Shown: positions 1,250 through 30,427, counted from the first letter of the stretch. The stretch is DNA of 31,586 nucleotides from Nanobdellota archaeon (GCA_038046385.1 JBBSWH010000017.1:1-31586); one strand, 5' to 3'. Translations and numbers: made by a program. The notes: generated by a model not told the origin, from the sequence alone.

Positions 1250-1399
1250 GCTCTGTAGAAAATCTCGCTTCGCTCGGCTGCCATCGCTCGCATTATCTGT
1301 ACACCTAAATTGCAAAAATTCCCATTGCAATTTCCTTTTTGCTGAATGTTAAGCCTTATTATGCTCGCATATTGATGGCAGCTTTATTTTCTACAGAGC
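1250..1399 (-). repeat. Foldback element family A, copy 1
   Basis: 14-bp terminal IR GCTCTGTAGAAAAT (1250-1263/1386-1399) and inner stem GCTGCCATC/GATGGCAGC. The minus strand has a tandem-GA core GCGAGCAT/ATGCGAGC and a side hairpin CGAGCGAAGCGAG. Confidence 0.85.
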
Positions 1400-1451
1400 C
1401 CATGCCTGTTTTATCATTAAATATTTATATAAGTTGATAGCATGAAACCAT

Positions 1452-2279
1452 ATGATAAGGGCAAGAAGCAAAATCATCCTTTTTTCTTTAATTGTTGTTC
1501 TGCTTTTGGCATCCTGCTCAAAGCCGGAATGTGAGAAAAACACAGACTGTGTTTCAGCAAACAAATGCGTTGCTGCAAGATGTGCAGATGAAAAATGTGC
1601 CTACACTTCAAAGGAGAACTGCTGCGGAAACGAAGCAAAAGACAAGATTGAAGACGGCAAGCCAGGAAATTCGTGCACATGCCCTTCTGATTACGGCAAG
1701 TGCGATGGTATTGGTAAGGTTAAATCGGGCTCAAGGACAATTGATGCAACATACGCCCATTACTATTGCCAGAATAATGAATGCATTTTGGGTGTTGAAA
1801 CAGATGACAAGTCAGCGCAGAATTTCCTCGATTCAATCAATGTATTTTATTTCAAGGCAAGCTCTGTTTTAGCATACACCAAACCATTTGACATGTCAAG
1901 TGACTATTTTGAATTGACATTAACGCTTGACGATGTAAACAAGGATTTGGAATTGCCGATTAAACTGACAAGGATAAATATGCTGTATACAAGCCCAAGC
2001 ACAAAATCAGAGCAGCTTATTGCAGAGCAGCAGCTTGCTAATTCAATAATCAGGATAGGCCAGCAAGTATTCTTAAGAGTCCCATTAAATCTTGATTACA
2101 GGCCGCAGGAAATAGAAGAAACTGGATCGTTAAGATATGTTCTTGATTATTCTTACACCAAAAGAGTTCCAAATGGGAAGAACGCAGACGGGTCAACAAT
2201 ATATTCAACAGAGCAGGTAAGGGAAAAATTCACTTCTCCGACAAAACAGGTTCTATTTGTAAGAAGCGAAGCAAAATGA
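1452..2279 (+). CDS. Cys-rich putative surface lipoprotein
   Basis: Signal peptide ending in lipobox-like LLLAS-C, about a dozen Cys in the N-terminal half and a beta-rich C-terminal half. Confidence 0.75.
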   Translation: MIRARSKIILFSLIVVLLLASCSKPECEKNTDCVSANKCVAARCADEKCAYTSKENCCGNEAKDKIEDGKPGNSCTCPSDYGKCDGIGKVKSGSRTIDATYAHYYCQNNECILGVETDDKSAQNFLDSINVFYFKASSVLAYTKPFDMSSDYFELTLTLDDVNKDLELPIKLTRINMLYTSPSTKSEQLIAEQQLANSIIRIGQQVFLRVPLNLDYRPQEIEETGSLRYVLDYSYTKRVPNGKNADGSTIYSTEQVREKFTSPTKQVLFVRSEAK

Positions 2280-2809
2280 AAAAAGGAGCCATAGAGCTTT
2301 CTATGAACTTTATTGTGGTAATCATAATATCCGTCGTCTTATTCGGCTTCGGAATATATTTTATTTCAAGATTAGCAGCACAGGCAACGGAATTGAAAGA
2401 CATGACTTCCGGAGAGCTGGATGAGAAAATCAGCAACCTTGTATGTGAAACTTCTGACAGGGTCTGCATTGGAATTGACAAGAAGACAATACAAAAAGGG
2501 AAATTTGATGTTTTTGGAGTCAAGATATTGAATATATTGGATACGCAGGATTTTGACATTAGAGTAGATCATCCAGATGGATTGCTTGGCTATAAAAAAG
2601 ATAAGACAGAGATTCCCCTTGATACCCCTTTGATAATTAACCCGCAAGAAAGAAGCGTTAAGATAAACAAGAACAATGAGCAAACATTAGGATTCGGGAT
2701 AGAAGTTCCGAAAGACGCGACATCTGGAACTTATATTTTTAACATAGAAATTAAAGTTGGTGGCGAGTTATACACGCCGCTGTTGAAGTTCTATGTCGAC
2801 GTACCATAA
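2276..2809 (+). CDS. Class III signal peptide (pilin-like) protein with Ig-like C-terminus
   Basis: MKKG|AIELS followed by a hydrophobic helix. Overlaps the previous stop (ATGA). Confidence 0.8.
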   Translation: MKKGAIELSMNFIVVIIISVVLFGFGIYFISRLAAQATELKDMTSGELDEKISNLVCETSDRVCIGIDKKTIQKGKFDVFGVKILNILDTQDFDIRVDHPDGLLGYKKDKTEIPLDTPLIINPQERSVKINKNNEQTLGFGIEVPKDATSGTYIFNIEIKVGGELYTPLLKFYVDVP

Positions 2810-2824
2810 TAAAACAGTATAATC

Positions 2825-3577
2825 TTACTCCGCTGCTTTTACAATTTCTGCAAAGCTTTTTGCGTTAAGTGAAGCGTTTCCGACCAATCCGCCGTCAATG
2901 TTTTTCATTGCAAGAAGCTCTTTTGCATTTTCCGGCTTCATTGAGCCGCCGTAAAGAATTCTTATTTTTTTGGCAGACTCTTCATTAAAAATTCCTGATA
3001 AGACTTTTCTTATGAAAACATGGGCTTGCTCTGCATCATCTTTTGTAGCTGCTTTTTGATTTGGATTTCCTCTGCTTATCGCCCACACAGGCTCGTATGC
3101 CACTGTAAGATTTGCAGTGTCCCCAACTCCAGCCAACCCCTTTATCAGCTGGCCTTCAAGAATATTTTCTGTTTTGTCATTGCTTCTCTGCTCCCAAGTT
3201 TCTCCGACGCAGAAAATTGGTTTTAGATTGTGCTTTAATGCAGAAATTAATTTTTTGTTTATCATCCCATCATCTTCCTTGAAGAATTCTCTTCTTTCAG
3301 AATGGCCAATGATTACATATTCGCAAAAATCTTTAAGCATCAAAGGGGATATGTCGCCTGTAAATGCGCCGGAATCATCAAAGTGCATGTTCTGAGCGCC
3401 GATTTTGATATTGCTTCCCTTGGCTTCTTTTGCAGCATCATGCAGCGCAGTAAATGAAGGGCACAAAACAATGTCTGCATTTGCATCTTTTACAATAATT
3501 TTGAATTCTTTAATGAAAGCGACAGCTTCTGCTCCTGTCTTGTTCATCTTCCAGTTTGCCGCAATAAGTTTTTTCAT
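2825..3577 (-). CDS. tpiA: Triosephosphate isomerase, bacterial/eukaryal type
   Basis: AANWKMN, IIGHSERR, AYEPVWAI, YGGS and DGGLVGNASL motifs; 250 aa. Confidence 0.97.
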   Translation of the reverse strand: MKKLIAANWKMNKTGAEAVAFIKEFKIIVKDANADIVLCPSFTALHDAAKEAKGSNIKIGAQNMHFDDSGAFTGDISPLMLKDFCEYVIIGHSERREFFKEDDGMINKKLISALKHNLKPIFCVGETWEQRSNDKTENILEGQLIKGLAGVGDTANLTVAYEPVWAISRGNPNQKAATKDDAEQAHVFIRKVLSGIFNEESAKKIRILYGGSMKPENAKELLAMKNIDGGLVGNASLNAKSFAEIVKAAE

Positions 3578-4197
3578 ATTTTTCTCCTCCTTGAAACTGC
3601 ACCTGAAATTATCAACAATAAAGAGATTATAAATGTTGCCATTGCAATTCTTAATCCAATGTCCATAAACAGCTGTTCAGGGTATAGTCGAACTATAATC
3701 TCTTTTGACGGGTCAAACATGTAGTTTCCCTGCGGGAAAAATGTTTTATGAAATGATTCAAATGTTGAATCAAAATTAAAAAAAATAAATAAAAATATTA
3801 ACGCTCCAAAAACAATTGTAAAAATTCCCCCGTAAAAAATTATATTTCCGAATTCTTTTTTTATGTTTTTGCTTTTTTTTGAAAGATAAACAAAAAGCAC
3901 TAGATATAAAACTACAAAAAAATAAAATAATTTGTTGGAAGCGCTAATTATATTCCTGACGTCTTCGAGATGGGATTTTTCCCTTTGGCTGAAATCATCC
4001 GGCAAATCATTTGTTCTTCCTTTGATAAAGTCAATAACTTTTCCGTGCAGTTCATCTGCATTCTTCACTTCGCTATATACGCCGTATTTTTCAAACTCGT
4101 GTTTGTAGAAATAATTATTGAATGCGTAGATGTTGAATGCAACAGATAAAACAATGAAAGAGATTGTAAGAATGAAAAAATATCTTATGGCTTTCAT
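3574..4197 (-). CDS. DUF1461/TIGR01906 integral membrane protein (Lit-like)
   Basis: Four hydrophobic segments and motifs E.SHLEDVR, FESFHKTFFPQGNYMFDP and LYPEQLF. Confidence 0.8.
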   Translation of the reverse strand: MKAIRYFFILTISFIVLSVAFNIYAFNNYFYKHEFEKYGVYSEVKNADELHGKVIDFIKGRTNDLPDDFSQREKSHLEDVRNIISASNKLFYFFVVLYLVLFVYLSKKSKNIKKEFGNIIFYGGIFTIVFGALIFLFIFFNFDSTFESFHKTFFPQGNYMFDPSKEIIVRLYPEQLFMDIGLRIAMATFIISLLLIISGAVSRRRKI

Positions 4198-4611
4198 TTA
4201 ATTGTCCATGACTATTACTTTCTTTTCTGAATCTATGGCTTTTTTTATAGCGTCTTCAATTGAATTTATGTTTTTCTTATGCTCTGTCTTGCTCGGCCTT
4301 TTCATTTCCTGAAAAACCTGCCTTGCAGCTGCAAATTTGATGTCTTCCTCTTCCTTTATTTCTGGAGCTTTTTCTTTTTCGGTCAGCTCTTCAAAGGCAT
4401 CTTTTTTCTTGTCTTCATCTTTTTCAGAATTTTTTTTGTTCCTTACGTAATCAGATGAGGCACCTTCTTCACTTGAGCCGTATTTCTGCTCGTTGTAGTG
4501 CTTGTCGTCGCTTTTGCCACTATCGGCCGCAAAAATGTTTCCGTATTTTGAAGAACCGTAACTAGAAGTGATATTCAGCTTGTCCTCATCCCATATTTTT
4601 GCATGATACAT
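4198..4611 (-). CDS. Hypothetical highly charged protein
   Basis: ORF track 4198..4626. The ATG at 4611 is preferred because it follows the stop of the upstream small ORF. K/E/D/S-rich. Confidence 0.7.
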   Translation of the reverse strand: MYHAKIWDEDKLNITSSYGSSKYGNIFAADSGKSDDKHYNEQKYGSSEEGASSDYVRNKKNSEKDEDKKKDAFEELTEKEKAPEIKEEEDIKFAAARQVFQEMKRPSKTEHKKNINSIEDAIKKAIDSEKKVIVMDN

Positions 4612-4615
4612 TGAG

Positions 4616-4774
4616 TTATGATGCAATCAACCCGTTCCATACTGGTTTTTTTATCTTATAGCCCTTCTTGATGAGCATATCGGCTTCTCTGTTGTTGCTC
4701 TCAAGCAGCTGGGCTTCAAAAGCCAAATCAGGAGTTACTTCTTCTATCTCGAAAAACGGTTGTAGTTGCTTCAT
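4616..4774 (-). CDS. Small hypothetical protein (52 aa), missed by the ORF track
   Basis: MKQLQPFFEIEEVTPDLAFEAQLLESNNREADMLIKKGYKIKKPVWNGLIAS*. Strong SD GGAGG and TTTAAAAA TATA upstream; fills the gap. Confidence 0.7.
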   Translation of the reverse strand: MKQLQPFFEIEEVTPDLAFEAQLLESNNREADMLIKKGYKIKKPVWNGLIAS

Positions 4775-4835
4775 TTCTCATTCCTCCCTCTGTTTTTAAA
4801 CCTTTCGGTTTTAACTACCCCACAGTAGATAAAAC

Positions 4836-5159
4836 TTAAGTTTTGGCAAGGATTAAATCAATCTTCTTTCGAAGCTCTGGCTCAGGGTAAGCCCCTATAA
4901 CCCTGTCAATCTCCTTACCCCCACTGAATATGATCATGCATGGGATTCCCCTTACATCGTGCTTTGCAGCAATCTCCTGATTATCATCAACATTCATTTT
5001 TGAAAATTTTAATTTTTTTGAGTATTCGCTTGATATTTTTTCAAGAACCGGCCCAACCATCCTACAAGGCCCGCACCATGGCGCCCAGAAATCAACGAGA
5101 ACAGGAGTTTTGCTGTTGGTGACTTCCTTGTCGAAAGTATCACTTGTTAAATCAAGCAT
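4836..5159 (-). CDS. trxA: Thioredoxin
   Basis: VDFWAPWCGPC active site and GIP cis-Pro motif; 107 aa. Confidence 0.97.
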   Translation of the reverse strand: MLDLTSDTFDKEVTNSKTPVLVDFWAPWCGPCRMVGPVLEKISSEYSKKLKFSKMNVDDNQEIAAKHDVRGIPCMIIFSGGKEIDRVIGAYPEPELRKKIDLILAKT

Positions 5160-5246
5160 AAGATACGTAGCTCTGAAATCATATTTAAGCTTTTTGTTAT
5201 TAGGAAAACATAATAAAAATCTTCAGGGCATTTTATAATTGAGATT

Positions 5247-5750
5247 TTACCTGAAAATCAAGAATCTTTTCTTGTCAGAATCCAGGTCAGTAAAAGAATC
5301 AACTTCTTCTTTTAATGCAGCAGAGCATGACTTGCCGAATGCAATGGCTTCTATCCTGCACCCAAGCGCGTGCCTTAAATGCCTCACCAAAGGAACATAA
5401 TCCCCGTCGCCGCTTACAATCACGATTGTATCAAGCCTTGGCGCCAATTCGATTGCATCCATTGCCAATCCGATGTCCCAGTCGCCTTTCTTTGCTCCGC
5501 CGGCAAATATCTGCAGGTCTTTTGCCCTTACTTTATATCCCATTTTTTCAAGAGCATCGAAAAAATTCTGCTCTTCACCGACATCTGCCTTGATAACATA
5601 GGCTATTGCCCGTATCATGCTTCTGTTGGCAGTCGCTGTCCTTAGAATTTGCGCAAAATTGACTTTTGCATTGAAAAGATTCTTTGCAGAATAGTACATA
5701 TTCTGTACGTCAACAAAAACTCCGACCCTTTGATCTTTGAATCCCGGCAT
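5247..5750 (-). CDS. NYN domain (LabA/DUF88, PIN-like) protein
   Basis: VFVDVQN, KGDWDIGLAMD, VSGDGDY and D.F.DL motifs. Confidence 0.92.
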   Translation of the reverse strand: MPGFKDQRVGVFVDVQNMYYSAKNLFNAKVNFAQILRTATANRSMIRAIAYVIKADVGEEQNFFDALEKMGYKVRAKDLQIFAGGAKKGDWDIGLAMDAIELAPRLDTIVIVSGDGDYVPLVRHLRHALGCRIEAIAFGKSCSAALKEEVDSFTDLDSDKKRFLIFR

Positions 5751-5751
5751 G

Positions 5752-5901
5752 TTAACCTTTTAAAACATTCTGCTCAAATCCGCAGCCCGCGCACATTATT
5801 TTTCCGTTTATGTATTCCATGCTCAGTTGTCCGCACTTCGGGCACTGCTTGACAACAGAAAATTTCCTAAGCTTTCCTGCAATCTCTTCTCCATTGTCCA
5901 T
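5752..5901 (-). CDS. Small CPxCG zinc-ribbon protein (49 aa), missed by the ORF track
   Basis: MDNGEEIAGKLRKFSVVKQCPKCGQLSMEYINGKIMCAGCGFEQNVLKG*. Two CxxCG knuckles; the stop is 1 nt before the NYN start; TTTATATA upstream. Confidence 0.85.
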   Translation of the reverse strand: MDNGEEIAGKLRKFSVVKQCPKCGQLSMEYINGKIMCAGCGFEQNVLKG

Positions 5902-6070
5902 GACTTAAGTTATATGGTGGAAGCAGGTATATAAAGATTGTGAAAAAAATTAATGGGCTTTGTTAAGACTAGTTTAAGCGACTATTTTATTGAGTTATCT
6001 TTAATTTATTTTGAGTTAATGTTATTCGTTAATGAGTTTTTAGTTATTGTTTTTATTAATATTTATTTCC

Positions 6071-6115
6071 GCCTTCGGCAAATGTTAGTGCTCGCTGGCA
6101 CCATAACCAGCTCGC
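6071..6115 (-). repeat. Motif family B, copy 1 (tandem-GA hairpin plus GCCGAAGGC)
   Basis: Minus strand GCGAGCTGG-TTATGGTG-CCAGCGAGC, 10-nt spacer, then GCCGAAGGC. Confidence 0.7.
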
Positions 6116-6152
6116 CATACATTATAAATCAAAAACTAAAACAAAAAAGAAT

Positions 6153-6365
6153 TCACTTAATTATTTCGTACTCTTTCACGATTATCCACGTGAAAAGCAT
6201 CAAAATAACTGCGCCTGCGATTATCCACGACAATCCAATCGGGCCTGCTTCGTTGAACATCAGCCACAGCCCATAGGCCATTATTCCAAAGCCAAGCCAT
6301 AAAAACTTGTCAAGCACAATCTTCATGATTTCAAATTCCTGGTTTTCTGTCAAGCGTCGTTTCAT
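6153..6365 (-). CDS. Small two-TM membrane protein
   Basis: 70 aa, LTENQEFEIMKIVLDKFLWLG followed by two hydrophobic helices. Abuts the upstream pilin-like gene. Confidence 0.8.
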   Translation of the reverse strand: MKRRLTENQEFEIMKIVLDKFLWLGFGIMAYGLWLMFNEAGPIGLSWIIAGAVILMLFTWIIVKEYEIIK

Positions 6366-6366
6366 T

Positions 6367-6906
6367 TTAACCTCTTACCACAACAAAAAAGTCTTTTTGA
6401 TCATAGACATTATCCGGTGTAGGCAAATCAGTGTCAATTACGTCAAACGTCATGAAATAAGAGCCTGAAGGAATTGATGTCGGTATACTCAATCTTATTT
6501 GCCTAACATTTGCATCCGCTGGGGGCACTTTATATTCAGTATTTTCACCAAATTGAAACCAATTGCCCACTTGAAAGATACCTCCAGTGGGACTTGAAAT
6601 TGGAGTAAACTGCATTTTATAGTGCAAGTCGGAATCTTTTTTATTTCTAATCCCTACAGTCAAATATTTAGCTTCTCCCTTATCAAGAGTGACAGAGTCC
6701 GGAAAGTTAACTTTTTGATCATTTGTTATCATTTGATTTACAATATCCTTCTTAACTTGATCTGTTACTGTGCTTGTAGTGTCCCCTATATCACTGAACA
6801 TTCCCCTAATAAATCCTAGTCCAAGACCAAGAAGCGTCATTGCCAAAACTATGATAACTATTGCCTGTATCGAAATCTCTAGAGAACCTTTCTTGTTGAA
6901 CATCAC
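6367..6906 (-). CDS. Class III signal peptide (pilin-like) protein, paralog of 2276..2809
   Basis: NKKG|SLEIS plus hydrophobic helix. C-terminal IP..IPSGSYFMTFDV resembles VP..ATSGTYIFNIEI. SD GAGGTGA. Confidence 0.8.
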   Translation of the reverse strand: MMFNKKGSLEISIQAIVIIVLAMTLLGLGLGFIRGMFSDIGDTTSTVTDQVKKDIVNQMITNDQKVNFPDSVTLDKGEAKYLTVGIRNKKDSDLHYKMQFTPISSPTGGIFQVGNWFQFGENTEYKVPPADANVRQIRLSIPTSIPSGSYFMTFDVIDTDLPTPDNVYDQKDFFVVVRG

Positions 6907-6989
6907 TTCACCTCTTTTTTATAACAAGACTATCATTTTATCTTAGGTTTATAAAGTTTTCGAATTGAGATTTTATAAATTCTAACAGC

Positions 6990-7001
6990 AACCTTTAAAA
7001 A
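6990..7001 (+). promoter_or_regulatory. BRE/TATA promoter; probably leaderless rpl10e transcript
   Basis: AACCTTTAAAAA ends 22 nt before the ATG at 7024. Confidence 0.6.
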
Positions 7002-7023
7002 CAGGCAGAATTTCCATTTCTTC

Positions 7024-7563
7024 ATGGCAAAACTAAGATGCTTCACAGCTTACAGGAATACAAAGAGGCCTTACACAAGAGTTTCAAAATTCAAGGCAAA
7101 GTCCTACATAAGGATGGTTCCTAACGTAAAAGTCGTTAGATTCGAAACAGGATCTCCTGGAAAAGCCTTCGGCTGGCTATTAAGCCTTAATTCAAAATCA
7201 CAGCTGAACATAAGAGATCATGCTCTTGAAAGCGCAAGACAAACTTCTAACAAACTTCTTGAAACATCAATCGGCGTTGGTTCATTCCACCTTAAAGTAA
7301 AATCTTATCCTTATCACGTCATGAGAGAGCACGCGCTTGCAGCAGGAGCTGGAGCAGACCGTTTCTCGTCAGGAATGGCTCACGCTTTCGGCAAACCGAT
7401 AGGAGTTGCTGCAAGAGTCATGAAAGGCCAGACTATTTTTGAAGTAAGTGTTGACAAACAGAATCTTCCGGTTGCAAAACAGGCGCTTGAAAGAGCATCA
7501 AAAAAGCTCCCGTGCGCATGCACAATAGTCATATCAGAAAAAAAAGCAGTAGAGAAAAAATAA
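7024..7563 (+). CDS. rpl10e: 50S ribosomal protein uL16 (L10e)
   Basis: RPYTR, IRDHALESAR, YPYHVMREH..AGAGADR.SSGM..AFGKP.G.AARV and A..KLP motifs. Confidence 0.96.
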   Translation: MAKLRCFTAYRNTKRPYTRVSKFKAKSYIRMVPNVKVVRFETGSPGKAFGWLLSLNSKSQLNIRDHALESARQTSNKLLETSIGVGSFHLKVKSYPYHVMREHALAAGAGADRFSSGMAHAFGKPIGVAARVMKGQTIFEVSVDKQNLPVAKQALERASKKLPCACTIVISEKKAVEKK

Positions 7564-7588
7564 GTTTCTTTTTTAAAAAGGGGTTTAA

Positions 7589-11158: not shown

Positions 11159-11426
11159 AAAACTATAAGTTGAAAGGTTGATTAAATATGTTTCGGGCTG
11201 TAAACTAGAACTGCAGCGAGTTTTACTCATAATTTTCTATATTGATAATAATAAAGTTACTATATGCTTACATATATAAAATAGAAAGCTTTAAATATAA
11301 GTTATCCCCTTTAATATACATATTTGTATACTACTATATTATACAAGTAAGAGTAAACGTAGGGGAAATGCTATTGTAATTGTAAAGAAAACGTAAGAGC
11401 AGTAGCTGTCTAAAAATACAGGCAGG

Positions 11427-11476: not shown

Positions 11477-11485
11477 ACAATTAAA

Positions 11486-19479: not shown

Positions 19480-19648
19480 AAAGTTAGCATCAATTCGCGA
19501 AGGCATTTTATTGATTTATCCAACATGACAGGGGGAAGCGAATTGAGCAAAGCTCAATTGCTCACTTGAAGCTATGCTTCAAGTTGAGTCCCTTACGGGG
19601 ATGTCATGTATTCTAAAAAGAGGGATAGCCTGAGCCGATGCTAACTTT
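19480..19648 (+). repeat. Foldback element family A, copy 2, with nested multi-hairpin insert
   Basis: AAAGTTAGCATC/GATGCTAACTTT stem and GCGAAGGC/GCCTGAGC core. Inner ACATGACA/TGTCATGT closes three hairpins: AATTGAGC-AAA-GCTCAATT, CTTGAAGC-TAT-GCTTCAAG and CCC-TTACG-GGG. Confidence 0.8.
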
Positions 19649-19663: not shown

Positions 19664-21946
19664 TTACTCTAAAGGAACTGCGCTCCATAATGTCCAGTCA
19701 TTTGAAGGAGCATATCCTCCAAAGACATAATTTGGCGATTTATTCTGCCCGAAGAATGAATACTGGACATCGCCCCATGCCTGCGGAACTCCAGAGCCTT
19801 TAAAGCCCATGCCATACACCGGGCTTCCAAAGAATTTCCATGTTTTCATCAAGCCATGAAAGTCGCTTAAATCTGTTGAAGCATCTGCTCCCGGCTCTAC
19901 TGTTATGGCCTTGTCGTAGCCATATTTCTTTATTGTGGATATTATCTGCTTTATCGGGCTGTTTCCCTGCCCCGGCGCAAGGTGGTCATCATGATAGCCG
20001 TAATTGTCTGCAAGATGTATGTTGCCGACCATGTGCTCCTTTGCAAGGCTTTCAATCGTGTCTACTGCCCATTTGTTGAACGCCAAATCGTTCTGCTCTT
20101 TTGATTTACGCGGATCATCCTGCCAATATTTTCTCCATAGGTTAATGTGGCCTGTGTCAATAGTTGCTTTAACGTGCCTTTCTGCAATTTTTTCAGCTTC
20201 TTCCTTGGTAACGCCAGTATAGTATGGATTAGCCTGCTTCAGCTTTCCGTCTCTCATCATCTTTATTTTTTCTTCTGTCAGCTCTTCAGGCGCCATGCTT
20301 GCTCCGTAAGATATCTCCGGCTGAGTCAGCATATCCACCATCCTTTCTCTGGTTTTCTTGATTATCCACTTCAGCTCTTCAGGATGGCCGCCAAACCTTT
20401 CAGGGAATATGTGCTCCACTGCAAGAACAACAGGATTATTTGGGTCTTTTGTCTTTCTAAAAGCGTGCACTGCTGCCTCTGCATACAGCCTTATTCCCTC
20501 TTTTTCCAGCCTTTTGATTGGAGTTATAATGTGATCCTTTGTTTCATGGGTATCTTTTGCCTGCGCTTCCTGCCCTGCTGCAGTTGACCTTGAAAATTCC
20601 ATTCTTCTTTTGACATCAAATATCTGGCCGTCTATCACTTCGACAGGATCTTTCATCTCTCCAGGAACAAGACCGCCGGTTGCGCCGTAGATTTCTCTGT
20701 CTTCTTTGAATAATTTCCATTGTTCTTCTTTCGGCATTGTTTTTTTGAGATTGGCATAATAATCGCGAAGTTCTGTTAATTTTTTCAGTGCTGCAGTGTC
20801 TCTTTCAGAGTCTTTTGAATATTGCAGCGACCATCCTCTTGCAACGCTTTCCTGGGCATCTAAAGTTGCTTTTACATAAGCTTCTTCAGGGTACATTTTC
20901 TCATAGTAATTTGGCCTTCTTCCCTTGGATTGCTCAAACCACCTGTTGTATTCGTCAGCTTCCTGCTTGAAGTCCTCAAAGGACTTAAGCTGTATATCAA
21001 AAAGCCTTTTATTATGGTCAAATTTCGGAACTCTCCCTTTACTGTGGTCATAAGGATCTTTTATCAATTTGCCTTCATAGTCTACATAATCTCCTTTTCT
21101 GATACTTACCCTGTTTCCGTTTCCATCATTTTCTTCTGAATTATCATATCCTGCGTAATCGCGCTCTGCTTTGTTCCACACGGGATATGCAACCAATCTG
21201 TCTTTCTGCACTGTGTCAATTTTTGCAGAAGTTCTGTCGTCTAATAATTCAAACTTCGCATCAAGCTCTTGCGTGTGCGCCTGCTTGAACAGAAGCCTTC
21301 CGGTTTTATCTCGTGAAAGGTTAAGCCTTCCTGTCTCATCATCAAGATAAATGTCAGTCATCGGCCGCTCGAATTCTCCTGAGTGGATAACAACAGATCC
21401 TCCGCCTAAGTCGGCTTGGAAGTCAATCGCTCTTTTTAATTCAAACAAATCCTGAGTTGCATTGTAGATTGAGAAATTTCCCCTTTCATCACGCCCCATC
21501 AATCCCATTAATTGGAAAGAAGCGTGCGTTGTGAACTTTACTTCATTTGCCATTGACAATTCTCTGATTGCCTGCCTTTGGTCTTCGCCCAACATTTCCG
21601 GTGTTTGCGCGTTCCTGTTTCCGCTCCTGTAGCCAGGAAACTGGATTTCTATATTGCCTGCGCCCATCCTTATCTTGGAATAAATGCCTGCAACGTTTGC
21701 CGCGCTTATTCCCATCGGAACAGACATTCCAATATCTTTTATTCCCAATCCAAGCCCGTAAGAATCATCTTCTCCGCCTGCATGTTTGTGTCCATCGCCT
21801 GCATGATGGTGCCCTCCTCCGACTCCGCCTCCATGAGCGTGTCCATCGTGCCCCGTATGCCCTTCTCCTCCAATATAATTCTGGGAGTCCATTGCGCTGA
21901 AGTAGTCTGTAACAGCAGCCCTGTAATTTTGTTTTCCGAAATCCAT
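19664..21946 (-). CDS. Xylose isomerase/endonuclease IV-like TIM barrel with large insertion and His/Gly-rich N-terminus
   Basis: TTHAS, VVIHSGE, LAVEH, TIDTGH, IHLADN, DDHL and TVEPG motifs. Confidence 0.85.
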   Translation of the reverse strand: MDFGKQNYRAAVTDYFSAMDSQNYIGGEGHTGHDGHAHGGGVGGGHHHAGDGHKHAGGEDDSYGLGLGIKDIGMSVPMGISAANVAGIYSKIRMGAGNIEIQFPGYRSGNRNAQTPEMLGEDQRQAIRELSMANEVKFTTHASFQLMGLMGRDERGNFSIYNATQDLFELKRAIDFQADLGGGSVVIHSGEFERPMTDIYLDDETGRLNLSRDKTGRLLFKQAHTQELDAKFELLDDRTSAKIDTVQKDRLVAYPVWNKAERDYAGYDNSEENDGNGNRVSIRKGDYVDYEGKLIKDPYDHSKGRVPKFDHNKRLFDIQLKSFEDFKQEADEYNRWFEQSKGRRPNYYEKMYPEEAYVKATLDAQESVARGWSLQYSKDSERDTAALKKLTELRDYYANLKKTMPKEEQWKLFKEDREIYGATGGLVPGEMKDPVEVIDGQIFDVKRRMEFSRSTAAGQEAQAKDTHETKDHIITPIKRLEKEGIRLYAEAAVHAFRKTKDPNNPVVLAVEHIFPERFGGHPEELKWIIKKTRERMVDMLTQPEISYGASMAPEELTEEKIKMMRDGKLKQANPYYTGVTKEEAEKIAERHVKATIDTGHINLWRKYWQDDPRKSKEQNDLAFNKWAVDTIESLAKEHMVGNIHLADNYGYHDDHLAPGQGNSPIKQIISTIKKYGYDKAITVEPGADASTDLSDFHGLMKTWKFFGSPVYGMGFKGSGVPQAWGDVQYSFFGQNKSPNYVFGGYAPSNDWTLWSAVPLE

Positions 21947-22095
21947 TTTAGATTTTTTTAATTGAGTTTTATTTTAATTATTGGGTTTTATTATTTTAAT
22001 TTTAATATGTTTTAGTTAATGAAGTGGTTTAATAATTTTCGTTATTGCGTTTGTTTTATTTTTTGATTATTTTTATTATTATTTTTTACAATGTT

Positions 22096-22131
22096 GCGAG
22101 CCGTTGAGCGAGCCTATCTTTCGCCGAAGGC
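22096..22131 (+). repeat. Motif family B, copy 2
   Basis: GCGAGC-CGTTGA-GCGAGC, 9-nt spacer, then GCCGAAGGC. Confidence 0.7.
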
Positions 22132-22171
22132 ATTAATTTTAATTAACAGCTCCAAATAATAAACTTTAAAT

Positions 22172-23578
22172 TTACCAATTAAGCATATCATGCTGCTTCT
22201 TAAAGTGATGGTAAGTTGTCCACATTGTTTTCTTTACAGCGCTCTGCTGCCTCTGCCTTGCAAATGCTGTTTTCATGATGTCTGTCTGCGTTACTCTTTT
22301 CTGCTTCGCCTCTTTGTTCATCTTAAAAGATAAAAATAATTCTGCAAAGCCGTGGAATATTGACATGAAAGGGCCGGGCCTCTTGATGTTTGTTTTCGGA
22401 GCGGGCTTTTTATCCTCAAATTCTTCGCCGGCTTCCTTCAGGTATCTAACTAATTCGTCTCCCAGTGAATCCAATGCAGCCTGAACAGAGCCGTCAATAA
22501 CCCCCAATAGCTGGAAGTCTTCCTGTTCCCTCATTCTTTTGTAGTTTTCAATCTCCTTATCAGTCCAGGCATATGCCCTGAAGTCAATTTCAACCCTTCC
22601 AAGGTGCAACGGCCCTCTTTGGTATTCCTGATTGTAGCTCATTTCCGGCCTTGTTCTGAATAAGTAATGCATCAGTATGCACTGGTTAACTGGGGACCCT
22701 GGTTTTATTGCAAGCAGTTCTATCTCTATCATTGAACTTTCAAAAGCGGCTATTAAATCCGGCATCTCGCTCTTTGTCTGGTCAAGCTGCAGCCTCTGTA
22801 TATTTTTCAGGTAAGGCTTAACCCATGAGACGTACATCCTTATTATCTCAAAATGCTGTCTTAGATATTTTAATGTAAACTTTCTTCTGTTTTTTAGCTC
22901 ATCATATGAATGCTCTTTCCACGCAAGAAATGCCCTTAATTTTCTCTTCAAAACTTCTTTTACTTTCCTGTTGAACTGGCCTCTTTCTCTCTCTGTTACA
23001 ATATCCACATCTTCCTGTTTCTGCGGATGCGTGCTGAAAAACAAGTCAGGCAAAGTTGTAAACTGAACTTCACGTGCCATTCCATAAACTGAAGCCGGGT
23101 TTTTTGCGCCCTGCTCGACCAAGTCAACCCAAATCCCTTTCAGTGTGATTTCTGCGCTCTCTGCGCTTGGGCTGTTTGTAAAGCTGTCATTGTAATAGCT
23201 TAATCTTTCATCAAGAATCCTCATCTCCCTCACAAGCTGGAATAATTCACGCACCATTTTCCCTATTGTAGCTAAAAATTGTGAAACTTTGTCCTGCTGC
23301 AGCCCTATCCTTTGCTGCGATGCTCCAAAGAAAGCAGAATTTTCAGCAGCTGCAAAAACATCCGTTATCTTGTCTATTTTTGGGAAGCCTCCAAAGTATC
23401 TCATGTAATGCAAAGTCCAGAAATAAGGCTCTTCTATCGAGATGTTATATCCTTCGTAATGAAGCCTGTACCTTCTTGTGGGCTTAGGATATCCTGTCCT
23501 TATCTTGGATCCTCTAAACTCCTCGCTTTCCTCTGTTTCGTCGAATCCAAATTTCTTAAGATCAGCTTCAGTTACCAT
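22172..23578 (-). CDS. Uncharacterised 468-aa soluble helical protein
   Basis: Long ORF with SD GAGG, helical/coiled-coil stretches and an amphipathic segment PFMSIFHGFAELFLSF near the C-terminus. Confidence 0.85.
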   Translation of the reverse strand: MVTEADLKKFGFDETEESEEFRGSKIRTGYPKPTRRYRLHYEGYNISIEEPYFWTLHYMRYFGGFPKIDKITDVFAAAENSAFFGASQQRIGLQQDKVSQFLATIGKMVRELFQLVREMRILDERLSYYNDSFTNSPSAESAEITLKGIWVDLVEQGAKNPASVYGMAREVQFTTLPDLFFSTHPQKQEDVDIVTERERGQFNRKVKEVLKRKLRAFLAWKEHSYDELKNRRKFTLKYLRQHFEIIRMYVSWVKPYLKNIQRLQLDQTKSEMPDLIAAFESSMIEIELLAIKPGSPVNQCILMHYLFRTRPEMSYNQEYQRGPLHLGRVEIDFRAYAWTDKEIENYKRMREQEDFQLLGVIDGSVQAALDSLGDELVRYLKEAGEEFEDKKPAPKTNIKRPGPFMSIFHGFAELFLSFKMNKEAKQKRVTQTDIMKTAFARQRQQSAVKKTMWTTYHHFKKQHDMLNW

Positions 23579-23623
23579 CTATCCTCTTTTTTTGTTGTTG
23601 TATTCATTTTACTCTTTAAATGA

Positions 23624-25309: not shown

Positions 25310-25310
25310 A

Positions 25311-25457
25311 TTATTCAAAAATTCTCAGTGATTCATCCTCCCTCGATTTTCTTGACCTCTCGCTCAAGTTCAGCTCTATAACGTCGCTGTTCTTCAGCAT
25401 GTTTTCCATCTCGTTTTTGGTCTTTCCCAAAATCGCCGCCAAATCTTCAATTCTCAT
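25311..25457 (-). CDS. Small protein (48 aa), possible HTH-like N-terminus; missed by the ORF track
   Basis: MRIEDLAAILGKTKNEMENMLKNSDVIELNLSERSRKSREDESLRIFE*. Tightly packed between both neighbours. Confidence 0.7.
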   Translation of the reverse strand: MRIEDLAAILGKTKNEMENMLKNSDVIELNLSERSRKSREDESLRIFE

Positions 25458-25613
25458 TCAACCACCGCCTTTCTTCTTTATTTCCAATATGAAGCCCTCT
25501 CGGTGCTTCTTGAATTCCATTTCCATCCCTTTTTTTAGCCCCTCGTACTGCGCTAAAAGTTTTGGAATAGTGATTATGAGCTGGCCAGAAGGGAGTTTTT
25601 GTATTTTTACCAT
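25458..25613 (-). CDS. AbrB/MazE/SpoVT-type DNA-binding protein (51 aa); missed by the ORF track
   Basis: MVKIQKLPSGQLIITIPKLLAQYEGLKKGMEMEFKKHREGFILEIKKKGGG*, matching the GQ..ITIPK.....G...G....F swapped-hairpin pattern. Confidence 0.8.
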   Translation of the reverse strand: MVKIQKLPSGQLIITIPKLLAQYEGLKKGMEMEFKKHREGFILEIKKKGGG

Positions 25614-25758
25614 CGGTATACTATTATTTTTAATGGTTTATTTAATATTCTAAGATATGTTTAAGAAAATACTTTAATTAATAGTATTTAAAGCTTACGG
25701 TTTTGGCGGTTTGAGGAGAAAGGCTATTTTTATAAAGGGAAAATGGTTATTTTGAAGC

Positions 25759-26280
25759 ATGGCCAGTGTTAGTTCTATATCGGAGGAAGCAATGATGCAA
25801 TATCATCTGTTTAGCAGAGAATGCAGGCATCACATTTCAAGAACAATATCGGATCATGCCAATTATCCTAACTTAAGGGGACCCAATACCAAAGGAAGCA
25901 AAAATGTGCCTCCGGAAACATACAAGGCAAGAATCAATATTTTAGGAAGGCCGATGGAAATGGAGCACACAGGAGAAAGAAGATTGAATGTGGGCGGACT
26001 TGAGGTGATTGTTGTCGTGCAAGCTCCTCTTGTAGATGCTTCAGATTACCTTAAGGGATTTGATATGGCTAATGGAGTTCCTATGAGGACTGTGATTGGA
26101 GATGACTTGCTTAAACTTCAGAATATTTCCAGAGAGATTCATGATAATTGGATAAATATAAATCCAAAAATGAAAAGTTTATTAGCTGAAGGGAGTTATT
26201 TGAGTTTCGTGCAGATGATGCTCCATGCAATAGACAATTCAATTGCAACAGCTAAGATAAAGTATAAACAAATGCACTAA
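25759..26280 (+). CDS. Hypothetical protein
   Basis: 173-aa ORF with TTTATAAA about 25 nt upstream; no motif recognised. Confidence 0.65.
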   Translation: MASVSSISEEAMMQYHLFSRECRHHISRTISDHANYPNLRGPNTKGSKNVPPETYKARINILGRPMEMEHTGERRLNVGGLEVIVVVQAPLVDASDYLKGFDMANGVPMRTVIGDDLLKLQNISREIHDNWININPKMKSLLAEGSYLSFVQMMLHAIDNSIATAKIKYKQMH

Positions 26281-26296
26281 CTTAAATTTTAATAAT

Positions 26297-26650
26297 ATGG
26301 CAAATCAAAAGTGGGTAAAAAAGCAGAAAAAAGCCAAAAGCTTTGAAGTAATCCCTGCAAAGAAGCATGATGACTATAGGGATTTTGTTCTGGACGACGG
26401 ATGCTACGTTCTTATAAAAATTTACAGAAAGACCGGAAACATAGGAGTTGGAATCTGCGACTATAAGCACACCATACTAAAGGAATTCCGCGGAAAAAGG
26501 GTACAGGACATTTACCATACAATATTTGCGTACAGCAACAAGCACAAAAAGAACTGGTTCAAAAGGCTGGATCATGCAGCATATCTCGGAAAAGAATTAA
26601 AGAAGGCAGAGATTGCGCTTGCAACAGGAAATGATTATGTTCAGGAATAA
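26297..26650 (+). CDS. Stand-alone DUF4346 domain protein
   Basis: D..G.Y.LI and RLDHAAYLGKELKKAEIAL..G.DYVQE motifs. Confidence 0.85.
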   Translation: MANQKWVKKQKKAKSFEVIPAKKHDDYRDFVLDDGCYVLIKIYRKTGNIGVGICDYKHTILKEFRGKRVQDIYHTIFAYSNKHKKNWFKRLDHAAYLGKELKKAEIALATGNDYVQE

Positions 26651-27513
26651 CTCCCTAGTTTTTTGATCTCTTCAACCATATCGCTTGCCAAATAAGTGAA
26701 GCCTTTTTTCTGTTTCAGAAGCAAATCTCCAATCTTTTTGTTGAAGTAAGACGCGTTGATTGCGCTCTGCACAATATCTTTTGACTGCGCAAGAAACCCT
26801 GCGCATAAACCAGCAAGAACATCCCCTGTTCCGCCTTTTGTCATGCCTGGGTTTCCGCCTTTAACATAAAGAATCTTATTTTTTGAGATTATAATGTCAA
26901 TTTTTCCCTTCAGTAAAATAATGTTGTTTTTTTCGAGAAAACTTTGAGTTAATTTTTTTATTGATATTGATTTTTTAACAATGCTTTTTTCGTTATTGAT
27001 TTGTTTTATTGCTTTTTTGTCTATTTTTGAATTCAATAAAAAGTATTCAAGCTCTTTTGCATGCGGCGTTATGATGGAGTTTTCCGTATCGTCCATTGAG
27101 ACTGCTTTTATCGCATCAGCGTCTATAACCTTAAGGTTTTTTATTTCTTTTACAGACTTTTTGCAGAATTTTTTTGTTTCATTTCGCATTCCAATTCCAT
27201 TTCCAATAAGAAAAACATCAAATTTTTCAGACTGTTTTTTTACTAATTGAAAACTTTCCAATGAGAAATGATTTTCTGCAATTTTTAATGTCACTAAATC
27301 AGGAGAATAAGCGTTTGAAGCTCTTGTAACATTTTCAGGCGCAATTATCTTTACAAGATCGCAGCCGCTTCTCAGTGCAGCCATCGAAGCGAGGATTACA
27401 GCGCCTGCATAATTCTCGCAGCCGCCGACAGCAAGAACATATCCGTTGTCCCCTTTGCGGCTTGCCGCTTTTCTTTGCGGAATCTTTATGTCTTTTTTTG
27501 TTATGAAGCGCAT
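26641..27513 (-). CDS. nnrD: ADP-dependent NAD(P)H-hydrate dehydratase
   Basis: SRKGDNG.VL.VGG, Y.GA, ALRSG.D, IGNGIG, VIDADA, ITPH..E, LLKG and GGTGDVLAG motifs. ATG at 27513 is preferred. Confidence 0.95.
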   Translation of the reverse strand: MRFITKKDIKIPQRKAASRKGDNGYVLAVGGCENYAGAVILASMAALRSGCDLVKIIAPENVTRASNAYSPDLVTLKIAENHFSLESFQLVKKQSEKFDVFLIGNGIGMRNETKKFCKKSVKEIKNLKVIDADAIKAVSMDDTENSIITPHAKELEYFLLNSKIDKKAIKQINNEKSIVKKSISIKKLTQSFLEKNNIILLKGKIDIIISKNKILYVKGGNPGMTKGGTGDVLAGLCAGFLAQSKDIVQSAINASYFNKKIGDLLLKQKKGFTYLASDMVEEIKKLGSYS

Positions 27514-27600
27514 AACCTTATTAATGCTTAATATTATATATACTTTTTGCAATATTATTTTCTTGGTTTTTGTTTCTTATCCAGCAATGGTTTTTTACGG

Positions 27601-28551
27601 TCAACTGGATTTAACTGCCCTTAAATCATCAAAATAAGAAGTGCCTGACGGGCCGCTTCCGGGAAGAGCGCCTCCACACCATTGGACTGTTGCAAAGAAC
27701 ATTAGGAATGTGTTCTTGCCGCTGTTGTAATTAGAGACTTGCACAAATGTCCAGTCGGTTGTCCCGGTTATCAAGGCGGAATTCTGCCATGATGCCCAGG
27801 AGGTATTTGCAATTCCTACTCCAGAAGCTCCGACTTCTCCGACGGTTTTTACCCATCCGGTAAGGCTATAGAGCGTGTTTTGCGCCACAGGTATGTCTTG
27901 AACATAATAATTATTGCAATAAGAATTGCTTCCTGAGATTATTGCGCTGTAAGCGCCGGATTTTGCAAAAGCAGTTGTCGCCCCCGCGGTGCCGCCTGCC
28001 CAATTATTCCAGCCTGAAAGGCTTCCTGCCTCAAATCCGGGATTCTGCAAAATAGTGTTTATGAATTGGTTGCTTTTTATGGTGGTGTATACAGAACCCT
28101 CTACAAGCTTGCTGAAAGAGCTGCTGCTTGATGCCTTATGATAAGTTAGTTTTATATCGATTTTTTCCTTGCTGTCGCGCATAAGCCCTTCCCCTGTAAA
28201 GCCGCACGATATGACTATATTTTTAGCAGCTCCGCTTTTCCACACAGCGCCAATTGCAGAGGAGGTACAGTCAGAAAGCTGAGTTGTTCCGGCAGATAAA
28301 TTGACAGAATCAATGATTATTGGCTCTCCGGCATTATTGGTCAGCATCAAGTCAATCCCGTTTACACTCATTAAATAATCTTTGCATCCGAATTCTGAGC
28401 CAAAGCTGCATCTGCTCGGCAATAGATTTTTTGGGCTTAGTATTCCAAAATATGCCAAAGCTCCAATAGCAATCAATATTATCAAAAAAGCCCACCCATA
28501 GGTTACAAGAAATTCCAATGCGGCTTGGCCTTTTTTAAGCGAAATATCCAT
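27601..28551 (-). CDS. Class III signal peptide pilin-like protein fused to a CBM4/9-like galactose-binding-like domain
   Basis: KKG|QAALEFLVTYGWA plus hydrophobic helix; C-terminal LQNPGFE.G...W, SG.YS, Y.LTGWVK, GTTDW and YFDDL motifs. Confidence 0.85.
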   Translation of the reverse strand: MDISLKKGQAALEFLVTYGWAFLIILIAIGALAYFGILSPKNLLPSRCSFGSEFGCKDYLMSVNGIDLMLTNNAGEPIIIDSVNLSAGTTQLSDCTSSAIGAVWKSGAAKNIVISCGFTGEGLMRDSKEKIDIKLTYHKASSSSSFSKLVEGSVYTTIKSNQFINTILQNPGFEAGSLSGWNNWAGGTAGATTAFAKSGAYSAIISGSNSYCNNYYVQDIPVAQNTLYSLTGWVKTVGEVGASGVGIANTSWASWQNSALITGTTDWTFVQVSNYNSGKNTFLMFFATVQWCGGALPGSGPSGTSYFDDLRAVKSS

Positions 28552-28656
28552 GTATTATAATCGCCTAAAAATCTTTTTAAGCTTTTTGGCTAGAACGTAA
28601 GTTATTCTGGCAAATCCGGCGTATGCAACAACAAATTTATACTATGGCTATTCTTT

Positions 28657-28758
28657 CTACTCCTGTACTTTTGCGTGCGCCTTGTGCAGCCTGTCGTGGT
28701 ATTTAACAACTTCTTCAATGCTCATCTCGTTTAATTCTTCTGCTGTGCATATTTTCAT
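28657..28758 (-). CDS. Micro-protein (33 aa); missed by the ORF track
   Basis: MKICTAEELNEMSIEEVVKYHDRLHKAHAKVQE* with SD GGGAGG upstream. Confidence 0.5.
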   Translation of the reverse strand: MKICTAEELNEMSIEEVVKYHDRLHKAHAKVQE

Positions 28759-28838
28759 AGTAAACCTCCCAATCGCTTTAGGATGGTAATACTGTGCAGC
28801 TTATTAACCTTTAGAACTGAAACATAATGAAAAAAGGA

Positions 28839-29426
28839 TTATAATCCAATATCAGCAACAACAACCCTTTCCTTGAACTGATCTAATCCTTGTTTCATGT
28901 CGTGAAAAGTCACAATCAGGTCTGCGTTGATGTACTTGTCAACTGTTTCTCCGGTGTCCGGGTCAATCCCAGTCGGAATGTCAACCGAAACTTTTGCTGC
29001 TTTTGAACCGTTTATGTCATCTATTATAGCCGAAATTTCCTTGTTTAATCTTCCTTTTATCCCGATGCCGAGGATTGCATCCACTATGATATCATAAGCG
29101 TCAAAATCGACTTCATCATCAATAAGAAACTGGATTTTGTCATTGCGTTCAATTTTTTTGTAGTTTGCAAGAGTCTCTTTTTTCATTCTTTTTTCATCGC
29201 CTATGAAAAGAATGTCCGTTTCAGCTTCGTCGCAAAGATGATTGGCCGCAACAAACCCATCGCCGCCGTTGTTTCCATGATAGCAGACAACAAGGACCCT
29301 TTTATTTTCCAGTCCAAATTTTTCCTTTATTGCATTGTAAACAGCCTTTCCGGCATTTTCCATAAGAACAGCCCTTGAAACTCCGCTTTCCTCTTCCAGC
29401 ATTTTTATGTCCTGAGATGTTATCAT
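28839..29426 (-). CDS. nnrE: NAD(P)H-hydrate epimerase (YjeF N-terminal domain)
   Basis: LMENAG, GNNGGDGFVAA, IVDAILGIG, SVDIPTG and ADL.VTF motifs. Confidence 0.95.
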   Translation of the reverse strand: MITSQDIKMLEEESGVSRAVLMENAGKAVYNAIKEKFGLENKRVLVVCYHGNNGGDGFVAANHLCDEAETDILFIGDEKRMKKETLANYKKIERNDKIQFLIDDEVDFDAYDIIVDAILGIGIKGRLNKEISAIIDDINGSKAAKVSVDIPTGIDPDTGETVDKYINADLIVTFHDMKQGLDQFKERVVVADIGL

Positions 29427-30217
29427 TTTGTTACAAGCGTTATTTTTTCAATTGCATCTTTGTTATTGTCAAACCTTTCTATCAAATTATTTATATCTTT
29501 TTCCGTCATATATCCGCATTCTGTTAAAAAATCCGTGAAATCTATTTTTTCAGCGTTCGCGAATCTCTTGATTAATAATTCATAAGGATAGTTCATTGCA
29601 GGCCTTATGATTTTTTTCTTCATCAAATCAACAATAACCTGATTTGACCATTCTATGGCAATATCATTCTGGACAGCGTTGATGAAAGAGCCATCGGGGA
29701 ATGCCTGATTTAAAAACCTTATCATTTCTTCATGTTTTTCTGGAATTATTGGAAGCATTTTTTCCATTGCTCCGCACTCTCCGAACATTCTGTCCTTGTT
29801 TTTTTCAGTGAACGGGCTTCTGTTAAAAGGGAATAATCTGCAGACATAAGCCCTTTTTGTGTGATAAATCGAGCATTTTCCGTCTTTCAGGAAATGGCAC
29901 GCATCCTTTTCTGTGTCCATAAAGTAGCTTAAAATTATTGCTTTGTTGGAATTCAAGTCAAGAATTGCCCTCAATGGCCTGATGTTTGCATCAACATTCG
30001 CTTCTTTCTGCCATTCCCTGAACCTTTTTGCTTCCCAGTCCCACAAAGGAAAGGTCATTCTTTCAATTAGAGCAACCTGAAAAACCGGAAGCTTGCCGAA
30101 AACATGCTCTTTTAGAAACTCAACATCTTCATGAGGCATCATGCCCCTTATGTGGCTGCAGCAGTTCCCGCAAGCGCTGCACTTGAAATTTAGGCCTTCT
30201 TGGATATGGATAAACAT
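29423..30217 (-). CDS. YkgJ/CxxCxxCC family cysteine-cluster protein
   Basis: FKCSACGNCC and CHFL.DGKCSIY..R..VCRLFPF motifs. Confidence 0.9.
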   Translation of the reverse strand: MFIHIQEGLNFKCSACGNCCSHIRGMMPHEDVEFLKEHVFGKLPVFQVALIERMTFPLWDWEAKRFREWQKEANVDANIRPLRAILDLNSNKAIILSYFMDTEKDACHFLKDGKCSIYHTKRAYVCRLFPFNRSPFTEKNKDRMFGECGAMEKMLPIIPEKHEEMIRFLNQAFPDGSFINAVQNDIAIEWSNQVIVDLMKKKIIRPAMNYPYELLIKRFANAEKIDFTDFLTECGYMTEKDINNLIERFDNNKDAIEKITLVTK

Positions 30218-30263
30218 TCTACTCTGGCTTTGAGCTTAGGCTATTTAAATTTTTATCAAACTT

Positions 30264-30427
30264 GGCGTTATTGAAAAGTTGAAGGTTGCCATCAATATGC
30301 GAAGCTTATCAAAAGAACGAATCGAGCATTTTTTGAGGTTCCAGAGAAAAAAATGCAATCCATCAATAAACTCCAAGCTGAGCGATGGCAACCCGAAGCT
30401 CAAAGCTGAGGACTTTTCAATAACGCC
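30264..30427 (+). repeat. Foldback element family A, copy 3
   Basis: 16-bp terminal IR GGCGTTATTGAAAAGT, inner GGTTGCCATC/GATGGCAACC, core GCGAAGCTT/AAGCTGAGC and side hairpin CGAAGCT-CAA-AGCTGAG. Flanked by TCAAACTT and TTAAACTT. Confidence 0.85.

Follow-up and report, generated by a model that had tools for sequence, protein, structure and literature searches.

Miniature inverted-repeat transposable elements (MITEs) of the IS5 family, such as those of the IS903- and ISH1-like groups, have terminal repeats that begin with GG, are flanked by 8-9-bp target duplications, hold no open reading frame (ORF), and have an autonomous partner of 0.9-1.1 kb whose protein matches PF01609, with NF033579 as its best match. 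Insertion at a fixed distance from promoters has been described for TnGBS, ISLre2, and ISKra4 (p-MULT), which use Mutator-type enzymes and insert, mostly in an oriented manner, 15-17 bp upstream of sigma-A promoters; for the archaeal ISH6, the same work, in the part that treats it, only suggests a promoter bias (PMC3942029). Three copies of the element considered here lie in a 31,586-nt stretch of DNA from a Nanobdellota archaeon (GCA_038046385.1, JBBSWH010000017.1:1-31586), hereafter the window, which is contig C17 of a 1.28-Mb genome (G000) that is 85% complete; the sequencing runs containing this genome are, where labelled, groundwater metagenomes. These elements have terminal repeats, 8-10-bp target duplications, and autonomous partners. 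They keep a fixed distance from TATA-like boxes, and their strand-specific fold covaries and is absent from the insertion sequence (IS) loci scanned. The account that we find reasonably probable as a whole is that they are MITEs with IS5-type ends, inserted about 15 bp upstream of TATA-like boxes, whose core would be a strand-specific DNA docking fold. The mobile frame with an identified partner is of a known kind, while the archaeal promoter spacing and the shared, retained folded cargo are new. The full-text literature, which included few subscription papers, yielded neither a description of the family nor an account of archaeal IS5 insertions spaced to TATA boxes.

All three copies are present where the initial annotation had placed them, and they fold markedly better than their dinucleotide shuffles (z = -5.3, -5.5, and -5.9), 0 of 200 shuffles folding as well for each of copies 1, 2, and 3. 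Copy 1, delimited by its fold and by the reading of its ends, is a whole MITE of 152 bp on the minus strand (1249-1400). It consists of a 15-bp left terminal repeat (1386-1400), of a class shared with IS ends in loci L348 and L353, a folded core (1276-1383; outer stem, 5-nt bulge, 2 bp, tandem GA, 4 bp, two arms, inner stem, purine bulge, and apical hairpin), a side hairpin with a tandem GA and a GAA loop (1264-1275), the closing C of which is the last core base, and a right terminal repeat (1249-1263) whose outermost base is changed. Its 9-bp target duplication, identical at 7 of 9 positions, is read on the plus strand at 1240-1248 and 1401-1409, and a TATA-like box on the minus strand (1226-1233), a putative promoter, starts 15 nt outside the right end and points away from the element. 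Copy 3, a whole MITE of 164 bp on the plus strand (30264-30427), has a 16-bp left terminal repeat (30264-30279), a folded core (30284-30393), a side hairpin with a tandem GA (30394-30411), and a 16-bp right terminal repeat (30412-30427). It lies within an 8-bp target duplication identical at 7 of 8 positions (30256-30263 and 30428-30435, plus strand), and the TATA-like box on its left (30242-30249, minus strand) starts 14 nt outside the element, before the ORF at 29423-30217, for which it may serve as promoter. The side hairpins, terminal repeats, and flanking direct repeats that had been reported for copies 1 and 3 are thus all seen. Copy 2 (19480-19648, plus strand) is a folded core whose terminal repeats are not above chance; a possible eroded end remnant and an 8/9 direct repeat lie 11-12 nt out and are not established. 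It looks unlike the others because a 50-nt double-hairpin element of another family (19539-19588, plus strand, ends uncertain by 1 nt) occupies its apical purine bulge.

Across the family, full copies span 154-166 bp, with terminal repeats of 15-17 bp that start with GG and a tandem-GA side hairpin, which is closed by a GNA triloop in 15 of the 41 side hairpins parsed. A repeat together with a duplication was called for 75 of 144 copies (8 bp, n = 16; 9 bp, n = 31; 10 bp, n = 4; 11 bp, n = 3), the remaining 21 calls being of 6-7 bp and not trusted; when flanks from different copies were paired, an 8-9-bp match occurred in 8 of 5550 pairings. There are many classes of terminal repeat, and core types do not sort by class. 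The covariation that appears inside the repeats has its source in differing cognate transposons and not in structure.

A scan of metagenome contigs with the copy 3 terminal repeat returned at least 122 loci, most of them chance matches. A complete 934-bp element in a Woesearchaeota metagenome-assembled genome (L339) has perfect 16-bp ends, both identical to the terminal repeats of copy 3, and a perfect 8-bp duplication. A second element with the copy 3 end, 1.12 kb long (L275; its other flank and 8-bp duplication are supplied by L246), holds two ORFs, one of 290 aa and one, a zinc ribbon, of 79 aa. The L275 transposase matches PF01609 at 28.3 bits (cut-off 23), has no match to PF13737 at E <= 0.1, has 108 relatives, and carries the invariant triad D110, D181, and E233. 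Right ends were read for 27 ISs; 10 of these ends agree with a MITE end at 14 of 14 positions and 17 at 12 or more, whereas 14/14 is reached by 6 of 200 control windows, which come from the same loci and may overlap true ends. The transposase profile matches in 23 of 42 other genomes of the genus, and six named genomes with a cognate transposase include one Ca. Woesearchaeota and three Nanoarchaeota/Nanoarchaeia records. With these records, the archaeal gene content of the window, and the groundwater runs taken together, the host is probably a DPANN archaeon of Woesearchaeota type. Transposases of the PF13737 class score 152 and 190 bits with NF033579, and their elements have ends similar, not identical, to those of the MITEs; gene-less elements with the copy 3 terminal repeat (L224, L308, L219, and L239) have other or half-deleted interiors. 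We are therefore confident that the copies are MITEs of IS5-type transposases: the element likely jumps with such an enzyme, because its ends match those of nearby IS5-type transposons, and IS5-type transposases of the same archaeal order would cut and paste it.

The family differs from known IS5-family MITEs in having one conserved core across many end classes, an insertion tied to TATA boxes, and, for copy 3, a partner that is without PF13737, the N-terminal domain of the IS903 group, and falls below the NF033579 cut-off. This last point weighs against the assignment, since NF033579 (IS5) is the best model for the partner protein P0001 at 81 bits, with a cut-off of 140. The same must be said of two negative results: the transposase profile has no match in the window's own, 85%-complete genome, and no empty site or circle was seen in contigs of five DNA runs, in which no joint skipped a whole copy and from which rare variants are dropped. 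That the elements are non-autonomous and mobile, as the initial annotation had proposed, stands; its idea that they are recognised by structure does not, the sequence-specific ends of IS5-type DDE elements being the better explanation. It had also held that a match to an IS end or to an Rfam family would take away their novelty. The ends do have such matches, and the core has none: its model matched nothing in the IS loci scanned apart from two separate, nearby MITE copies in L131 and L122, no core halves are found at the ends of PF13737 elements, and Rfam 15, searched with the window and 20 loci, gave no match at gathering score and only weak unrelated hits.

Other transposases were considered as partners and set aside. 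For IS1595, PF12762 is found neither in the window's own genome nor in any of five copy-rich genomes; for IS256/ISLre2, PF00872 occurs in 11 and PF06782 in 3 of 301 genomes, and the nine loci inspected have other or unreadable ends; a GIY-YIG partner was not found, or its ends differ. A 1.7-kb ISLre2-type element (PF06782) with terminal repeats of at least 14 bp and a 9-bp duplication lies in another genome of the order (L215, 1087-2824). No sequence relative of the partner transposase is found in the PDB. Small divergent ORFs accompany several of the IS elements (L275, 1978-2214; L122, 805-1047; upstream in L051-L053). The L275 zinc ribbon has a weak TFIIB-type hit (E 0.009) and may be a targeting helper; no small ORF was seen in the shorter L339 element. 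In L131 (3000-3220), L085, L025, and L027, core-bearing elements are enclosed by another terminal repeat of greater length, accompanied in L131 by a 9-bp duplication, which suggests capture by another IS end.

The position of the elements relative to predicted promoters was assessed with a TATA pattern defined for this analysis. Among 48 MITEs with well-defined ends, a TATA-like box starts 9-24 nt outside the element, with a peak at 15, at 20 of the right and 16 of the left ends, and each of the other five distance bins holds such a box at 0-5 of 48. The ends of the IS elements show the same pattern (13 of 27 with a box in that bin vs. 1 per other bin), as do three of four full copies of a PF13737 element in another genome (G200). 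Insertion is thus very probably promoter-directed, and the transposase may find its site via the promoter complex formed by the TATA-binding protein (TBP) and transcription factor B (TFB). As with TnGBS, ISLre2, and ISKra4 in the passages that describe them, insertion occurs at a fixed distance upstream of the promoter; the archaeal family differs from them in its IS5-type enzyme, in the use of archaeal TATA boxes, and in that either element end may face the promoter (PMC3942029), TATA-like boxes being about equally frequent on the two sides of the MITEs. If true, targeting of archaeal TATA boxes by IS5-type elements would be an archaeal counterpart to promoter targeting by bacterial Mutator-type enzymes, would offer a testable link between transposase and TBP/TFB, and would supply a natural map of the promoters of uncultured DPANN archaea.

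The anatomy of the core was established from 141 distinct parsed cores. It is about 110 nt long and begins with a 10-bp outer stem that ends in CATC/GATG, followed by a 5' bulge of 4-7 nt opposite 0-3 nt, two pairs, the tandem GA, and four pairs. Two unpaired arms, mostly of 16-21 nt, then precede an inner stem of at least 7 bp, a purine-rich bulge, and the apical hairpin. The pattern of CATC, bulge, GY, GA, and stem, together with the compensatory stem changes listed earlier for the window copies, is found in the sequence. In 138 of 141 cores, both strands have the GA pairs in a pyrimidine-GA-purine context, which the parser favours. In an alignment of 102 copies (A5), each of the 23 modelled core pairs shows two-sided changes, 97.6% of cells are paired, and only 33 of 2331 cells carry one-sided changes; the covariation score of 0.71, against 0.20 for shuffled and 0.04-0.13 for slid pairings, comes from a structure-fitted alignment with related rows and no formal test. 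In an unfitted alignment of 21 copies, 18 of 24 pairs already covary. The earlier proposal that structure is conserved is borne out in this way, and the companion statement that the central loops are unrelated has to be abandoned: two arms of 16-21 nt, an inner stem of 7 bp, a purine bulge, and an apical hairpin occur in every copy, and the centres are homologous because all share these parts and their covarying pairs. The core would comprise two helical modules, one with the bulge and tandem GA and one with the purine bulge and hairpin, spaced by two arms of fixed length.

Nested inserts occur in 17 of the 141 cores, all at the apical bulge or hairpin and none in the arms, and three further copies carry an insert in the 5' bulge. 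The 50-nt double hairpin of copy 2 is found in the same bulge of two other copies of the window's genome (C1:80841 and C5:23265), and other double-hairpin families occupy the same apical site elsewhere.

Several known structures resemble the core in part. In a kink-turn, a 3-nt bulge lies directly beside the tandem GA. Like kink-turn and box C/D RNAs, the core has a tandem GA near a bulge and two arms between two modules; unlike them, it has a bulge of 4-7 nt that is two Watson-Crick pairs away from the GA, and no C or D boxes are kept. The elements also resemble the bacterial MITE-like repeats bcr1, Nezha, and Chunjie, which are 130-235 bp long with direct repeats and a stable fold; bcr1 has compensatory changes and is transcribed, and its stability is reported to have been lost several times, and the passages on these families mention no conserved non-canonical motif, fixed-length bubble, or promoter spacing (PMC3184786).

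The initial annotation had described a family of three copies, and the existence of a family is clear: a relaxed core pattern gave 33 hits in the genome (31 true copies and two chance matches that were discarded), while five triplet shuffles gave 0-1. Profile searches added five insert-bearing copies and about five partial remnants; the genome has about 36 copies, and one model (R2) has 34 matches in it. With another (R1), matches are found in 23 of 43 genomes of the genus, and in 23 of 151 genomes of the order (22 of 144 genera; the 23 include one unpublished genome, G174, which enters no other count). A phylum-wide draw gave matches in 19 of 151 genomes, all 19 within the same order. Of three single-contig genomes, one has a single copy and two have none. 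The core is not essential, being absent from these two and from 20 of the 43 genomes of the genus. Apart from three small chance ORFs, the copies in the window's own genome are intergenic. A strict core pattern had no match in viral contigs, and copy 3 had none among PLSDB plasmids.

Copies in the window's genome are oriented in a polar manner along each contig (32 of 36, p = 0.003), independently of neighbouring genes, and the GA strand is the C-rich strand in 26 of 36, a weak skew. The rarity of one-sided changes, the GNA triloops, and the presence of the same mini-hairpin in other repeats of this genome favour single-stranded DNA. On such DNA the core likely folds into a docking site for a putative protein partner, and the fold would form when the strand is unpaired at replication; as to the nucleic acid in which it works, we put DNA rather than RNA at even chances and regard RNA as the minority case. 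Several observations count against the docking account. Both strands fold about equally in energy models, the polarity is weak in other genomes, where 20 of 34 neighbours agree, and the family is patchy, as described above. The polarity could, moreover, come from the transposase alone, and it is no proof of a DNA role because transposase-clamp contact can also bias orientation, as indicated in the relevant part of one study (PMC3971601).

The strongest alternative, which we consider doubtful, keeps the same MITE and makes the core a small RNA cargo: the GA strand would be transcribed, by read-through or from a backward-firing TATA box, as a protein-binding, two-armed RNA. YNCG-type loops are a stable RNA loop family, and in one subfamily the apical loops are UACG (30), CUCG (2), CACG (1), and UUCG (1), a count without denominator for a pattern that was the scan criterion. 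These loops and the 3x3 GUA/GAA variant favour RNA, two divergent copies having GUA/GAA or GGA/GUA in place of GA/GA, like loop-E-type RNA motifs. The excess of G-T over A-C mismatches in the core (34:13, vs. 12:10 in the ends) goes in the same direction in counts that the parser biases, and transcription from a TATA box at a distance of 15 nt could begin close to the end of the element. However, such boxes occur about equally on either side, the upstream gene reads the GA strand in only 15 of 36 copies and 14 of 36 lie between divergent genes, one-sided changes of the G-U type are rare, and there is no Rfam match.

The core also appears to outlast the ends. Among the 141 cores, 80 have ends, 40 have terminal pairing at chance level, and 21 are intermediate, and broken core pairs are about as rare in the 40 end-less copies (10/880, 1.1%) as in the 80 with ends (14/1760, 0.8%). 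In one subfamily of the window's genome, none of 322 core pairs is broken, and the ends range from intact to chance level, with imperfect references. Nearest-neighbour identity is 0.88-0.96 in the stems and 0.67-0.80 in the arms. Uniform decay simulated at 20-25%, a level sufficient to efface the ends, breaks 28-34% of outer pairs and leaves 39-52 of 60 copies detectable; strongly decayed copies are few in the genome, though simulated ones are mostly detectable. L060 and L071 lie before the same gene with near-identical cores, and L060 has lost its ends. The folded middle likely has a job of its own, since it stays intact even in end-less copies, and selection on the core after loss of the ends is, in our view, probable; it would act both in mobile lineages and in copies no longer able to move.

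A different explanation of these data, which we judge unlikely, is that the core serves only the spread of the element, for instance by bringing the ends together on an unpaired strand, and loses its role with the ends, end-less copies being young deletion products whose stems are kept by fold-back templated repair. The patchiness of the family is compatible with this, and cores often begin 1-6 nt from a stop codon, which shows that deletion removes ends. Double changes without intermediates fit templated repair, and conserved gene neighbourhood, with 11 cross-genome pairs, is about at chance by a rough estimate. Templated repair, however, preserves symmetry but no particular sequence, so that the bulge and the GA/GA ought to disappear, yet both persist, with the Y-GA-R context on both strands in 138 of 141 cores and a nearest-neighbour identity of 0.92 in the stems against 0.67 in the arms; a core that serves spread alone also fits poorly with the graded decay of ends beside 0/322 broken core pairs, and with L060, end-less and with a core nearly as in L071. 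Selection on the core nevertheless has points against it. The low break rate is partly built in, because the parser and models require a near-intact core; end-less copies need not be old, because deletion could remove ends fast, and arms diverged among young copies too; about five partial remnants exist in the window's genome; two copies have damaged GA motifs; in L239 the ends are kept and half of the core is deleted; and the family is present patchily.

A broader version of the preferred account is speculative at present. In it, an archaeal IS5-type family reads TBP/TFB to insert at a fixed distance from TATA boxes, a structured module hitched to many end classes is delivered beside promoters throughout the genome, and the host would retain each copy separately, the module being a cis-acting fold of a new class, or a small RNA, with a putative binding protein. 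The core illustrates a way for a folded module to travel with a mobile element between transposases of different specificity and to stay in place under selection, and it is an alignable target for structure probing and protein pull-down.

It is very improbable that the arms are guides of a dual-guide RNA of the box C/D, bridge, or tigRNA kind, with a target for each copy. The two variable arms that separate conserved modules at a constant length of 16-21 nt, the lack of any insert in an arm, and the selection on each copy that unique guides would account for all suit this idea. Yet for targets in the own genome the idea is largely refuted: arms match their own flanks no better than other flanks (6.9 vs. 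6.7 nt), co-located genome hits number 167 against 87-217, no complementarity to the genome, whose assembly lacks 16S rRNA, or to 24 tRNA genes exceeds that of shuffles, substitutions are scattered around a consensus, and four copies in one genome (G009) have identical arms at unrelated sites. The variable cargo loop of the initial annotation fails on the same grounds, the arms drifting gradually without a match to own flanks, genome, or tRNAs. As for bridge RNA, tigRNA, or omega RNA, the arms match neither a target nor a donor site; a paired stem or internal TATA box in the arms gave no signal. A role as 3'-untranslated region or terminator does not hold as a general rule, with 14 of 36 copies between divergent genes and both strands read elsewhere, and an attC-type site was rejected on inspection since the order of core sites is reversed, no integrase having been searched for.

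Least probable of all is a repetitive extragenic palindromic (REP)- or REPIN-like element whose fold is recognised and mobilised by an HUH (IS200-type) enzyme, a possibility raised at the outset: the genome does have one Y1 transposase, and the tandem-GA mini-hairpin recurs in its other repeats (26 vs. 4-11 in shuffles), but the terminal repeats are identical to those of DDE transposons, duplication length and TATA spacing agree with these, and no core copy lies near the Y1 gene at C10:41904. The CGTC-tagged REPs share with the family a CGTC/CATC tag beside a stem and dispersed intergenic copies; as depicted in the passages on them, they are single stem-loops with 8-9-bp stems and 4-5-nt loops, in contrast to a 110-nt multi-helix core within DDE ends and target duplications (PMC3733652).

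The single Y1 transposase is IS200-like (159 aa; L001 1423-1902, on C10 of the window's genome), its C-terminal end resembles a PCNA-binding motif, and it is a candidate mover of the nested hairpins. A mini-hairpin with tandem GA and GTA loop opens a repeat at five contig ends (C1:183165, C2:48, C3:39428, C10:57787, and C13:46), which is probably one end of an unassembled mobile element, and two more small repeat families contain the tandem-GA mini-hairpin (C1:35524, C1:41536, C2:43772, C4:37604, C6:101659, and C10:10165). At the end of the window, 31525-31586 on the minus strand has a weak HgcC hit (26.8 bits, E 0.019); depth rises and contigs continue from 31575, and an IS200/IS605-type element that was not assembled may end in this segment. 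In contigs of five DNA runs, raised depth and loose ends are seen at 21950-22170, 23300-23360, 43-290, and 826-983, which are other repeated intergenic or short stretches. Copy 2 is neighboured on the minus strand by the gene for a 760-aa TIM-barrel protein (PF01261) with a His-rich N-terminal stretch (19664-21946), and a 468-aa protein with no Pfam match is encoded in the same neighbourhood and on the same strand (22172-23578).

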